A stretch of 63,323 nt of DNA, filler included, from Octopus bimaculoides (Eukaryota), in the NCBI RefSeq assembly GCF_001194135.2. It is 3 parts of 3 records of this genome, joined end to end, with 100 filler letters (N's around TTAATTAATTAA, not from the genome) between each part and the next. Parts side by side here need not be neighbours in the genome. Positions count along the whole stretch, not along the records: positions 1 to 29,792 come from NC_068995.1; positions 29,893 to 58,923 come from NC_068987.1; 1 more part is not named here. One strand, given 5' to 3'. Both the position numbers and the translations under genes were made by a program. This document shows, in pieces, positions 38 to 52,986 of the stretch (within the stretch, counting starts at the first letter, position 1; each line of letters opens with the position of its first letter). The notes beneath the pieces were generated by a model. The model did not search any database. It was not told the DNA's origin and worked only from the letters and a program-made list of their open reading frames with translations.

Positions 38-228
38 GGGAGAATATACAAATAATAACAACAGACGAGGACAGGTGGTGTAAATAACAAAAGTATATAT
101 TAGTATGACGCTCGGGAATACGGAAAGTCTTTGACGTTTCGAGCTACGCTCTTCAACAGAAAGAATACGGAGACAAGGAGAAAAACACGGAGAAAAAAAA
201 TTGAATAGTGTTCAGTCAACGGTCATAT
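38..228 (-). mobile_element. Short non-autonomous hammerhead-bearing repeat (Penelope-like terminal repeat or retrozyme-like) inserted in (TA)n
   Basis: About 190 bp of unique sequence with (TA)n on both sides; contains the hammerhead fold at 128-164. Confidence 0.7.
128..164 (-). ncRNA. Minimal type I hammerhead ribozyme, core variant CUGUUGA
   Basis: Minus strand reads UCUUU-CUGUUGA-A-GAGC-GUA-GCUC-GAAAC-GUC-AAAGA: 5-bp stem I, 4-bp stem II, palindromic ACGU helix III, GUC cleavage triplet. Confidence 0.75.
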
Positions 229-264
229 ATATAATATCTATGTATATATTTGTGCCTTTGTGTC

Positions 265-405
265 TATGTTTGTTCTCCCCACCATTGCTTGACAACTGAT
301 GTTGGGTGTGTTTACATCCTTGTAACCTAGCAGTTTGGCAAAAGAGACCAATAGAATAAGTACCAGGCTTACATAGAATAAATTTGTTGTAGTATGGTCT
401 CTACA
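265..405 (+). mobile_element. SINE family A, 3' part
   Basis: Matches the tail of the younger copy at 58592-58923 (gcttgacaac..gatg..ggtgtgtttac..aaaagagacc.atagaataagtac.aggcttaca). Confidence 0.75.
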
Positions 406-720
406 CCTGGAAGCCCATCCTAATGTCAACCACTTTAGAGAGTGTACTGGGTGCTTCTTATGTGATACCTGCACAAGTGCTTTTTACATGGCACCAGCAC
501 CTGATATCCTGGTCCTTTGTCATCTCCTTCATAAGCCTCAGTGGCTTGAGATTGGCCTTCAGTACTTTGTCCTATGTCTTCCTGGGTCTCCATCTTCCGC
601 AAGTTCCTTCCACTTTAAGTGATCAGCACTTCTCTATGCAACTGTCTATGTATGTATTGCATATATATCATCATCTCATTTAATGTCCATGTTCCATGCT
701 AGCATGGGTGGGATGGTTGT
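405..720 (-). mobile_element. SINE family C (RTE-type 3' tail), degenerate
   Basis: cccatccta..ccaaccactttagagagtgtactggg and ttccatgctagcatggg match the reverse complement of the young copy at 29492-29792. Confidence 0.6.
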
Positions 721-1730
721 ATATATATATATATATATATATATATATATNNNNNNNNNNNNNNNNNNNNNNNNNNNNNNNNNNNNNNNNNNNNNNNNNN
801 NNNNNNNNNNNNNNNNNNNNNNNNNNNNNNNNNNNNNNNNNNNNNNNNNNNNNNNNNNNNNNNNNNNNNNNNNNNNNNNNNNNNNNNNNNNNNNNNNNNN
901 NNNNNNNNNNNNNNNNNNNNNNNNNNNNNNNNNNNNNNNNNNNNNNNNNNNNNNNNNNNNNNNNNNNNNNNNNNNNNNNNNNNNNNNNNNNNNNNNNNNN
1001 NNNNNNNNNNNNNNNNNNNNNNNNNNNNNNNNNNNNNNNNNNNNNNNNNNNNNNNNNNNNNNNNNNNNNNNNNNNNNNNNNNNNNNNNNNNNNNNNNNNN
1101 NNNNNNNNNNNNNNNNNNNNNNNNNNNNNNNNNNNNNNNNNNNNNNNNNNNNNNNNNNNNNNNNNNNNNNNNNNNNNNNNNNNNNNNNNNNNNNNNNNNN
1201 NNNNNNNNNNNNNNNNNNNNNNNNNNNNNNNNNNNNNNNNNNNNNNNNNNNNNNNNNNNNNNNNNNNNNNNNNNNNNNNNNNNNNNNNNNNNNNNNNNNN
1301 NNNNNNNNNNNNNNNNNNNNNNNNNNNNNNNNNNNNNNNNNNNNNNNNNNNNNNNNNNNNNNNNNNNNNNNNNNNNNNNNNNNNNNNNNNNNNNNNNNNN
1401 NNNNNNNNNNNNNNNNNNNNNNNNNNNNNNNNNNNNNNNNNNNNNNNNNNNNNNNNNNNNNNNNNNNNNNNNNNNNNNNNNNNNNNNNNNNNNNNNNNNN
1501 NNNNNNNNNNNNNNNNNNNNNNNNNNNNNNNNNNNNNNNNNNNNNNNNNNNNNNNNNNNNNNNNNNNNNNNNNNNNNNNNNNNNNNNNNNNNNNNNNNNN
1601 NNNNNNNNNNNNNNNNNNNNNNNNNNNNNNNNNNNNNNNNNNNNNNNNNNNNNNNNNNNNNNNNNNNNNNNNNNNNNNNNNNNNNNNNNNNNNNNNNNNN
1701 NNNNNNNNNNNNNNNNNNNNNNNNNNNNNN

Positions 1731-1890
1731 GTGTGGTAAAAAGCTTGCTTCCCAATAACATGGCTCTGGTTCAGTCCCAATGCCTGGCACTTTGGGCAAA
1801 AGTCTTCTACTACAGCCTTGGGCCAACCCAAACCTTGCGAGTGGATCTGGTAGACAGAAACTGAAAAACTTTCCAACTGGCTTCTTTCAG
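1731..1890 (+). mobile_element. SINE family A, tRNA-like head
   Basis: gtgtggtaaaaagcttgcttccca..ggttcagtcccaatgc.tggcac.ttgggca matches 58592-58750; pol III A/B-box-like layout. Confidence 0.8.
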
Positions 1891-49740: not shown

Positions 49741-50850
49741 TACCAAGAATTTACAACGACTTCGAACACAAGATTAAACAAAAGAGACAGAAACAATCAG
49801 TGACAAGGAAAATGCCACTTGCATTTGAACACTATGCATGTATTCTTTAAAAAAAAATCTTTTCTTCTAATTTTTCCAAAATTCAATTGTTTTCCATACT
49901 TACAGTTGAAAAAGTCTCAATGACTGAAACCGGTACTGAAATGCTTTTTATAAAATTATTTAAGCATTTTCTACCATGATATTTTTTTTTCCATATATAC
50001 GTATATATATATATATATATATATATATATGTGCGTGTGTGTGTGTGTGTGTGTGTGTGTGTGTGTGTGTGTGTGTGTGTGTGTGTGTGTGTGTATAGAT
50101 AGATAGATAGATAGATAGATAGATAGATAGATAGACAGATAGATAGATGGCGATACACAAACACACACACACACACACACACATATACCGGAGAAAATTG
50201 TTTTTCAGTTACAGTGTTCGTTTTCCAGTAATTCACTTTCTGTTTATCATTCAGGCTGTTTATCGTAAATTGCACAATACTTACCCACCTGTCAACTCCA
50301 TCGCACAAATTAATAAAAAATATAAGAGAATCAAGAAAAACAAGGACCTAAATAATAGGTAGAATAATTACTACTCAGCTAATCTCATTCATTTATCATT
50401 TGAGAATTATCTCTAAATTAAATCCGTACATGGATGAATATTGATTATCAGATTAAGCAACAGAATTTATGATTTCCCTTAATCGAATTTTGTGTCAATA
50501 TGCAGTTTTGCAATTTTCTTCTCTACGCCCACAGCCACGGTGTCAATCATCTTTAGGTTTAGGTCATCTTCACTTTCTTACAAATTTCATTAATATGCGA
50601 AGAAAACGTGTAGAAAATAGCATGAAACCCATCATGAAATTCATTGAACCGTAAAATCCTAATTCTGGGATTTCATTCAGGATATAATTCAAAATATAGA
50701 CTGATAAACACCACTAAATATAATAGCTGTTCTTTTCGTATAGCTTTACGTGTTAATCGTGCTTTTGTGTAAAGACATAAAATAAATGAAAATGAGAATA
50801 AGAATTAACTGCATACTGTGTATTGACATATTTGTTTATCACTGTGTCTA

Positions 50851-51440
50851 CCATGGGAGTCACAAGTGACTCCTTAAATATATATTTAGAATATTCCAAG
50901 AGATGCATTGATGACTTGCCGATCTATATGCTCAATATACTATGGGAGTCACTGGTGATTCCCAGGCTATATCCTCAATATACCATGGACTCACCGTTGA
51001 TGTCTCAAGTTACATTCTTAATATTCCATAGTCACCAGTGACTCACTACTCTACATTCTTAATGAGAGTCACCACTGACTTCCCTAGCTATATTCACCAT
51101 GCTACATTCACCAATGAGAGTCACCATAAGGATATAGTCCCAAACTATATCCTTAATATACCATGAGATTCACCAGAGACTATCCAAACTGTACCTTAAT
51201 ATACCATGGGAGTCAATTCATATTCTTAATATAGCATGAGAGTTACTGGAGACACCTTAAGTTATTTTCTTAACATACTATGAGAACCAACAGAGACTTA
51301 CCAAAGTATATTCTTAATATACCATGGAAGTCACCGGTGACTCCCCAGACTACATTACTAAAATACCATAATAATCACCGGTGACTCCCTACGCTATATT
51401 TTCAATGTACCAGTGGAGTCACAGGTAACTCGCAACAGTA
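50851..51440. repeat. Degenerate minisatellite of about 44 bp, about 13-14 units, each with a palindrome
   Basis: Unit starts at about 50851, 50896, 50940, 50983, 51026 and onward; approximate consensus CCATGGGAGTCACCGGTGACTCCCCAGACTATATTCTTAATATA. Confidence 0.85.
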
Positions 51441-51999
51441 ATTATTTATATGGATCCTCACGTTACTATGATTCAAATTACATTTGAAGTGACAAAGGCT
51501 GCGGAAACATATGGAGCAGCGCCCTGTGACTCCTATGGTATATGCAACCGAAACCCCTATAAAGTGGCGTCCTATGGGACGACCTAGATGAGACAGATGA
51601 TGCTTCTATCGATTGCTGTTTCAAGGATTTGGACTTAAAACTTTGAACACTGAAAAATCCTTCTGTCTCCATATCTCCATAGTTAAGGCGAGGGACCTTG
51701 AGGCGCCTTAGAGTCACCTCCCACCTCTCCCATCAGTGTGCTGGCTGTGGAATCCGAAGCTATTTTTTATTGTTTGAAACGAATATAATTTTCAAAATAT
51801 AATTTAAAACATTTTCCAATAAATTTGAATGAAAAAGATGCAAGAAGCAAAAAGAATAAGCGGCTGTATATGGTTCTAGTTGCCCTCAGTAATTTATCTG
51901 AGTTTATACCAAGGAATATAATGCATATAAATAAAAATACATAACTGCATATAATGAAATAGTCCAGCTAACCACTTGATAGCCAAATAAGGAGATATA

Positions 52000-52710
52000 C
52001 AAGATGTTCGGGCTCAATTTTATAATTCTTTATATCATATTTTATTTACGAACAGCTTGATGTATTGGGTGAAAATTGGAAAAAAATGTTATCTCTATCA
52101 TGATGATTTACGCCGTGCGACAAAACGCTGATAAATGACTGCTGTTCAATGCTCTGTGAACACTATAAAGACTGTAATATATGACAGGGACATCAGGAAA
52201 TTCTCGTTCTCTCAAAGAGTAATGATCTTCCGGCGCGTTTCGCCCCATACAATGAGATGGCTATATGAAGCTACTAGGGATTATCCTCAGACCCTGGCGG
52301 GAGAGATTATATATGTTGCAGCAGGAATCGGTTCCTTGCCATACCTCAAGAAACACTGAGAAGTGGTTGTCCGAGAATTCCAACGACACCACCAGCCCCA
52401 ATTTGAAGCCTCTTAATTCTCGCGATTGCAATCACATGGATTACTAGGTGTGGGGTGTGGTTGAAAAAGACACCAACCGATCTGCCTAAAACACCAAGGC
52501 TGAGCTGATGGCCAAGATCATGAAGGTGTTCGAAGATCTTCCCATGGACACAGTAGGGAACGTTGCCGGTTAAGGGCGGCTATTCTGAGTAAACTATTAA
52601 CTCCCAGACATAGTCCAGTAGATATTTCTAAAGATGTTTTTGAATGGCATACTGGGTTTTCTTTTCCGTTTATGCAAACTGTCAAATTTAACACGAACAC
52701 CCTACATATA
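52000..52710 (+). mobile_element. maT (DD37D-like) transposase fossil, internally deleted
   Basis: QQESVPCHTSRNTEKWLSEN..CNHMDY*VWGVVEKDTNRSA*NTKAELMAKI; probable right end acacgaacaccctaca. Confidence 0.8.
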
Positions 52711-52824
52711 ATGCACTCATACCCTTTCCGTATCCTGGAAATGTGTATTCAATCGCTGTACGAAAGGAAGACAACGTAATAGTAACAACAATGTTTAACA
52801 TAGTTCTATATTTGAAAAATGACT

Positions 52825-52986
52825 AATTATGTACATTATTTACATTATTTACATTTGACGGATGTTTGTCCTCATCTTGTTTGTTGTTAACACAGGGTTT
52901 CGGCTGATATAACCTCCAGCCTTCATCAGGTGTCTTGGGGAAATTTCAAACCTGGGTTCTCATCCCCGAGGTATTTTTCCGATGTC
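52825..52986 (-). mobile_element. Short hammerhead-bearing repeat next to (AAT)n
   Basis: Starts in tandem acattattt units, ends in (AAT)n, and contains the fold at 52889-52934. Confidence 0.7.
52889..52934 (-). ncRNA. Minimal type I hammerhead with mutated helix III and cleavage site
   Basis: GACAC-CUGAUGA-A-GGCUG-(10 nt)-CAGCC-GAAAC-CCU-GUGUU: canonical core, but CCU where an NUH triplet is needed. Confidence 0.75.

Follow-up and report, generated by a model that had tools for sequence, protein, structure and literature searches.

Decayed minimal hammerhead motifs of probable Penelope-like origin in a 63,323-nt stretch of animal DNA, and a high-copy family with an apparent G3-C8 core

The hammerhead-ribozyme motifs scattered through the 63,323-nt stretch of AT-rich animal DNA analysed here (the window; N = 6,002) are likely to be old, independently inserted and decayed pieces of several families of Penelope-like elements (PLEs) that carry a type I minimal hammerhead (min-HHR). 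We give this reading, including the mechanism proposed below, a probability of about 0.78. The set as such is ordinary: the window sites match the hallmarks of min-HHRs and of PLE insertions, so the class is already known. The new part, as judged from sequence comparison, appears to be one natural family, represented in the window by the site at 15999, in which a core pair is flipped across three organisms; its function and its PLE partner are what we infer.

The preliminary description of this DNA had listed six hammerhead folds (128, 15999, 21131, 30258, 46571 and 52889) and two partial ones (42213 and 47287), and all eight are present where it placed them. They were assessed with a type I descriptor requiring at least 4 Watson-Crick pairs in each of stems I and II, the descriptors being set after the sites had been seen, and with 400 block dinucleotide shuffles as the null. 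No perfect hammerhead core occurs in the window under this descriptor. With at most one core mismatch, three sites are recovered (159 on the minus strand, 46575 on the plus strand and 52929 on the minus strand, which are the scan positions of the sites at 128, 46571 and 52889), where 0.18 are expected and none of the 400 shuffles yields three or more. With at most two mismatches, a stem II span of at most 30 nt and G10.1, the site at 15999 (16042, minus) is added; these four compare with 0.065 expected and are reached in 0 of 400 shuffles, which confirms an excess of relaxed-core matches over shuffled sequence. When two mismatches are allowed with an unrestricted stem II span there are nine matches against 2.85 expected, so that chance probably accounts for five of them.

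A looser scored scan places the same four sites at the top, each with 0.09–0.35 expected per shuffled window. The site at 30258 (30263, plus), with 1.6 expected per shuffled window, and the site at 21131 (21135, plus), at rank 22, are not significant alone. The long stem II of 30263 is stable (fold z −3.9), 42213 on the plus strand likewise folds at z −3.9, and 47287 (47326, minus) folds at z −1.3 without a proper stem I. Single-strand folding returns the hammerhead shape for 16042 and 52929 and largely for 46575, not for 159 or 21135. No hammerhead family of Rfam gives a match up to E 10, either in the whole window or in 52860-52980. The hammerhead folds are thus real at four sites (128, 15999, 46571 and 52889), plausible at 21131 and 30258, likely genuine as a partial at 42213 and doubtful at 47287.

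[quoted passage not shown] The window sites resemble these metazoan motifs in their type I topology, in the extra base after A9 and in G10.1-C11.1, and also in a palindromic helix III of 0-4 bp, in the number of unrelated families and in the occurrence mostly of single motifs from truncated elements, with some opposite-strand pairs. The three-way type I topology is found at six sites, with imperfect cores at all. The extra nucleotide together with G10.1-C11.1 is present at 159, 52929, 42213 and in the family of 16042, while 46575 has the pair and not the extra base. Helix III, described earlier as short or palindromic in most cases, is so at 159 (ACGU), 16042 (AAUAUU) and 46575 (a near-palindrome), but is lost at 52929. 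Together with the excess over shuffles, these features support the PLE-hammerhead reading.

Overall, the preliminary description is confirmed in part and its interpretation partly supported. The flanks are mutually unrelated (the best cross match is 15 nt, E 0.046), in keeping with different families, and self-BLAST finds no second copies of the eight elements inside the window beyond their inverted arms. Four of the eight sites lie at most 130 nt from (TA)5+ or (AAT)4+, as had been noticed, whereas 14.8% of all positions do so (binomial P 0.02, with a threshold chosen afterwards). Two sites do sit in inverted duplications, 15919-15959 with 16052-16092 (within 15919-16092) and 30040-30412.

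The site at 15999 was compared with other copies by matching contigs of three organisms (A, B and C), along with raw RNA reads from A, to 15878-16151 (274 nt) at 80% likeness. The contigs that fit number 9,972, 7,423 and 4,093, respectively, so that the element is indeed multi-copy. Summed depth divided by the median depth of the listed pieces gives about 6,000–15,000 at position 8 and 29,000–56,000 at the peak, a figure that is not a true copy number and holds to an order of magnitude only; the family is high-copy, roughly of the order of ten thousand. On the ribozyme strand, position 8 (16037) is C in 98.6, 98.0 and 97.6% of the summed depth in A, B and C and in 95.5% of the RNA reads, and position 11.1 (16016) is C in 91, 90 and 88% of the depth. 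The change tally of every DNA run lacks any C>G or C>A place, hence neither C nor U takes the place of G3 (16042) at a frequency of 8% or above.

On these letters the family core reads G3-U-G-A-A-C8-A, with the tertiary pair C3-G8 flipped to G3-C8. The rest of the family motif consists of an extra G, G10.1-C11.1, GAAA, AAUAUU, U17 and a 7-bp stem I, and the other core positions look standard, with no change among the variants listed. One stem I site passes from U-A to U-G in 24–33% of the DNA depth, which keeps a wobble, and the stem II changes are CpG-type transitions at 4–9%. The window copy bears two private changes, A at 8 and U at 11.1, and is probably dead; because of them the window letters are not readable as family cores. 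The earlier claim of cores outside the CUGANGA/GAAA consensus therefore survives for the G3-C8 of this family in three organisms, but not for the letters seen in the window. Most of the odd cores there probably reflect decay, and the site at 128, otherwise perfect, remains a candidate for a family-level core variant (U6).

Frangieh et al. 2024 (PMC11167929) reported that in a PLE hammerhead C3G or G8C alone kills the ribozyme, that C3G/G8C partly restores cleavage, and that cleavage requires protein and is not needed for insertion in vitro. The 15999 family has the same swapped 3-8 pair as their Anolis Poseidon C3G/G8C mutant; the Poseidon swap was engineered, whereas that of 15999 occurs naturally, as the form shared by most copies of a high-copy family in three organisms. 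For natural hammerheads, Perreault et al. 2011 (PMC3088659) described a compensatory 3-8 change that occurs naturally and an A6C variant that is weakly active. In the parts of PMC3088659 and PMC4209133 considered, natural 3-8 variation is given as U3-A8, as opposed to the G3-C8 of the 15999 family. The core variants among the min-HHRs of Fig. S3 in PMC4209133 comprise two with U3-A8 and one in which U3 stands with G8, and G3 occurs in none of the 56 representatives of that figure. In the literature covered, from which the main PLE-variant survey and the repeat databases fell outside, G3-C8 was met only as an engineered variant (PMC11167929; PMC3884650, each drawn on in part).

The 15999-family motif was not found in JGI metagenomes or GTDB genomes. 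A generic scan for G3 minimal hammerheads, run on 24 of 64 metagenome parts with stem II fixed to GGC...GCC, returned 120 matches at 118 loci. C8 is present in 34 matches, none of which has a stem I of at least 4 bp, and this narrow search thus revealed no second G3-C8 family. At 30 AT-rich loci position 8 is G in 23, A in 4, U in 2 and C in 1. Within this narrow pattern G3-C8 looks rare. Six AT-rich metagenome contigs (L055, L061, L089, L099, L110 and L111) contain minimal hammerheads in inverted head-to-head duplications as in the window. Another contig has a minisatellite with units of about 40 nt (L112:150-500), several of which resemble the G3-C8 core with stem II and GAAACGUC, stem I being absent; it may be a satellite born from a hammerhead.

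The anatomy of the family can be read from the ends of its copies. Beyond 16052 the loose ends of all four runs have 13 letters in common before passing into unlike AT-rich DNA (30 letters visible). This points to a 5' end that recurs and to the lack of a conserved open reading frame upstream. Recurrent 3' ends lie at 16148 in every run and, as listed for organism C and the RNA run, also at 15918, and the left flank becomes (TA)n in other copies in all DNA runs. From these recurring ends the unit would be about 200 nt long, and its alternative 3' ends, two in number, would be separated by 57 nt. The family thus seems to be a non-coding element of this size with a PLE-type tail between its 3' ends and (TA)n flanks.

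In the window, the putative G3-C8-family hammerhead occupies 15999..16049 on the minus strand, with G3 at 16042, A at position 8 (16037) where the family has C, G10.1 at 16034, U at position 11.1 (16016) where the family again has C, GAAA at 16015-16012, the palindromic AAUAUU helix III and the 7-bp stem I; the predicted cut lies between 16006 and 16005. The ribozyme-bearing copy of the element spans 15919..16052 (minus), is about 13 nt short at its 5' end and adjoins TA-rich DNA at its tail-less 3' end. A second copy, inverted and 5'-truncated, stands head to head with it at 16052..16150 (plus), where 16052-16092 repeats 15959-15919; its extra 3' tail at 16093-16148 is followed by (AT)12. The insertion is accordingly best described as a tail-less ribozyme copy joined head to head with a 5'-truncated tailed copy, and its 41-nt inverted ends are not terminal inverted repeats of the family. 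The element at 30258 shows the same head-to-head arrangement.

This arrangement has close counterparts. For endonuclease-bearing (EN+) PLEs (Neptune, Penelope/Poseidon, Naiad and Hydra), Craig et al. 2021 (PMC8557442) described an inverted 5'-truncated copy, a tail at one end and a bias towards microsatellites, and in PMC11167929 the PLE tail is situated between two internal reverse-transcription start sites and the endonuclease prefers AT-rich DNA. The window agrees with such insertions in the head-to-head inverted 5'-truncated copies at 15919-16150 and 30040-30412, in the optional tail at one 3' end (15918 vs. 16148) and in the microsatellite or AT-rich bias. In Octopus vulgaris, PLEs are reported to make up 6.83% of the genome in 190 families (PMC13282606, in the part considered); dense PLE remnants would be expected if the host genome is that of an octopus, of which the repeat landscape of the window is reminiscent.

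The folds, the core letters of the 15999 family, its high copy number, its two 3' ends and its TA-rich flanks are directly supported by the data. We propose that the sites are terminal-repeat fragments of PLEs or short non-autonomous derivatives of them. A PLE reverse transcriptase/GIY-YIG protein, a partner that we infer, would act in trans and nick AT-rich or (TA)n DNA. The RNA would then be copied from one of two internal start sites, giving 3' ends with or without a tail, and the same copying would produce 5' truncation and head-to-head pairs. In the master element the ribozyme may cut slowly, as a dimer formed through the palindromic helix III or with the help of protein, while the genomic copies in the window would be catalytically dead. 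The master of the 15999 family would have had a compensated core, G3-C8 for C3-G8, which selection for a degree of cleavage most likely maintained in that lineage.

A number of observations weigh against this proposal. The comparison with other copies concerned the 15999 family, one of the eight sites. The earlier assignment to PLE-type elements agrees with the minimal-hammerhead features and the microsatellite bias, but no reverse transcriptase or GIY-YIG Pfam match is found in 201 open frames of the window (200 that lie outside simple repeats and are at least 58 residues long, and 1 added). Unlike in the min-HHRs of PLEs, then, no PLE reading frame is linked in the window, and unlike in EN+ PLEs the tail is 57 nt long rather than the 30–40 nt described for them. 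The family copies retain the whole ribozyme instead of starting at the cut site. Since insertion in vitro did not need cleavage (PMC11167929), the family could also spread if its core were dead. Beyond the variants listed there are 37 more; they include, for each DNA run, at least one C>T place, which makes a minority A3 possible, and, for the RNA run, one C>G place whose position is not given. No two-sided stem change was found among the variants listed, so that covariation of the stems, which the preliminary description had proposed as a check, was not seen there.

The RNA evidence adds to these points. Of one RNA run of organism A, 6% was read (12.9 million records), and 1,894 records (147 per million) fit the 15999 family. 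They are split equally between the two directions and are mostly less than 95% alike, and 78% continue into unlike sequence; such divergent reads running into other sequence point to old copies inside host transcripts. Neither of the RNA signs proposed earlier was met with: the run has no piled RNA ends at the predicted site, although fragmented cDNA libraries may hide them, and no circle ("goes back") joint occurs among the 15 joints listed, beyond which there are 109 more. Overall, the RNA data are compatible with cleavage or its absence and neither show nor exclude it.

The alternative that survives best, though we consider it improbable, holds that the family is PLE-derived and its G3-C8 core inert: the master lost cleavage, two hits happened to pair by accident, and the element spread without a ribozyme. 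It fits the finding that hammerhead mutants had no effect on insertion in vitro (PMC11167929), the success of Naiad PLEs without canonical hammerheads (PMC8557442, as far as its consulted part describes) and the missing RNA ends. G3 also stands with G8 at two AT-rich metagenome loci of one family (L036 and L089); however, the unselected second arm of L089/L099 reads C3, so these G3-G8 cases look like decay picked by the search pattern. Against an inert core, the changes hit exactly the known tertiary pair and leave both stems and the rest of the core looking intact; for two random changes among 12 core positions, the probability of landing on 3 and 8 and yet pairing is about 0.005.

That the weaker sites (21131, 30258, 42213 and 47287) are chance look-alikes is somewhat less probable still. 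The scores of 30263, 21135 and 47326 lie within the shuffled range, and a half-site test gives 5 observed against 1.4 expected, a count reached in 8 of 400 shuffles. Such an origin does not sit well with the very stable stem II of 30263 and 42213 (z −3.9), with the head-to-head arm of 30263, or with the stem I and the A-C...G-U helix III retained by 21135, and it is plausible chiefly for 47287.

We regard it as quite unlikely that the elements are non-LTR (non-long-terminal-repeat) retrozymes producing small circular RNAs out of tandem arrays. These are short, non-coding and hammerhead-bearing and are thought to be PLE-mobilised (Cervera and de la Pena 2020, PMC7229834; Li et al. 2026, bioRxiv 10.64898/2026.07.22.740005), and the sizes of 190–270 nt and the absence of coding agree, as does the report that solo monomers are common (bioRxiv 10.64898/2026.07.22.740005). 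In the parts of these sources considered, however, retrozymes form tandem arrays with abundant circular RNA and bear canonical type I hammerheads, distinct from the minimal PLE variants, whereas the window has single or head-to-head copies with minimal hammerheads and the 15 joints listed include no circle junction. A tandem array, with head-to-tail repeats and a hammerhead per unit, is found at none of the eight sites; the tandem retrozyme reading is therefore unsupported and was rejected.

The view that 15999 and 30258 are DNA transposons of the miniature inverted-repeat transposable element (MITE) type, with terminal inverted repeats and incidental hammerheads, is very improbable and for 15999 largely refuted: the window copy at 15919-16092 does have 41-nt inverted ends of 97.6% identity, but other copies run past 16052 into the shared 13-nt extension, the listed pieces span 15920-16052 as a unit, the joints at which the strand changes vary in position, and only one of the arms has the tail outside it, so that the inversion belongs to the window insertion and the 15999 family lacks family-wide terminal inverted repeats.

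The remaining sites vary in preservation. The putative minimal type I hammerhead at 128..164 (minus) has C3 at 159, U at position 6, an extra A after A9, a stem II of 4 bp, a stem I of 5 bp and a helix III reduced to ACGU; it lies within a segment of about 190 nt (38-226) that has (TA)n at either side. The candidate at 46571..46626 (plus), a type I hammerhead with a near-palindromic helix III and G at 16.1, belongs to a segment of about 265 nt (46546-46812) bounded by TA-rich repeats. At 52889..52934 (minus) a predicted minimal type I hammerhead keeps CUGAUGA and GAAA intact, with C at 16.1 and CC-CU in place of the helix III/UH stretch, and (AAT)n is found 61 nt upstream.

What seems to be a decayed minimal type I hammerhead at 21131..21175 (plus) has A at 10.1 and 12, a T-rich 5' flank and AATAAA directly behind stem I. 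The hammerhead-like fold at 30258..30374 (plus) has an 88-nt stem II, and its CUGAGGA overlaps the start of the stem; this short core reflects either the loss of 2-3 nt or a variant family. Its putative inverted second arm at 30040..30190 (minus) is alike from inside stem II onward and keeps GAAA, with no clear CUGANGA half. The likely partial hammerhead at 42208..42262 (plus) retains an intact CUGAGGA, an extra A, a strong stem II, CG-UU and a remnant of stem I and has lost GAAA, while the doubtful one at 47287..47331 (minus) shows CUGAUGA, GAAA, an interrupted stem II and no proper helix I. A candidate U3-A8 minimal hammerhead at 49906 (plus), with a palindromic ACCGGU helix III, a 4-bp stem II and a 3-bp stem I, scores at chance level (0.53 expected per shuffled window).

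The window is otherwise rich in repeats, with about 100 tandem-repeat entries and numerous dispersed repeats. A SINE-like (short interspersed nuclear element-like) dispersed repeat of about 230 nt occurs at 25537-25770, 34636-34869, 40922-41129, 55635-56151 and about 15 more places; its copies are 70–80% alike, and it is tandem, with 2.2 units, at 55635-56127. A second dispersed family is found at 251-383, 13013-13102 and 58815-58918, and a third at 1731-1866, 4973-5139, 17827-17984 and 58582-58752. Local degenerate direct repeats with a 43-nt period lie at 50924-51407 (pieces up to 145 nt, 71–80% identity). A DDE_3 transposase remnant (Pfam PF13358, E 4.6e-10), likely of Tc1/mariner type, lies at 60893-61270 (minus) and is the sole Pfam match in the 201 open frames. 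The copies at 29648-29792 and 59526-59670 are inverted and 95% alike, and the gaps at 29793-29892 and 58924-59023 share the pattern N44-12 nt-N44; an assembly artefact may account for this.

A further-reaching joint reading is offered tentatively, and we rate it at somewhat less than even odds. The 15999 family would be the first natural, catalytically working G3-C8 hammerhead, carried by a PLE parasite that is non-coding and about 200 nt long, has a fixed 5' end and exists in some ten thousand copies, as an order of magnitude, in three or more related species. It would have crossed a two-step fitness valley in its ribozyme core and been missed by CUGANGA descriptors and Rfam, and it would signal a hidden layer of core-variant families, with 128 (A6U) and 30258 (short core) as further candidates. 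If the G3-C8 family cleaves, it would be the natural counterpart of the mutant pair that proved the C3-G8 contact. It would also provide an evolutionary argument on whether PLE hammerheads are under selection to cut, a question that is open because insertion in vitro needed no hammerhead. In that case, a family of thousands of copies missed by standard descriptors would mean that hammerhead counts in animal genomes are underestimates.

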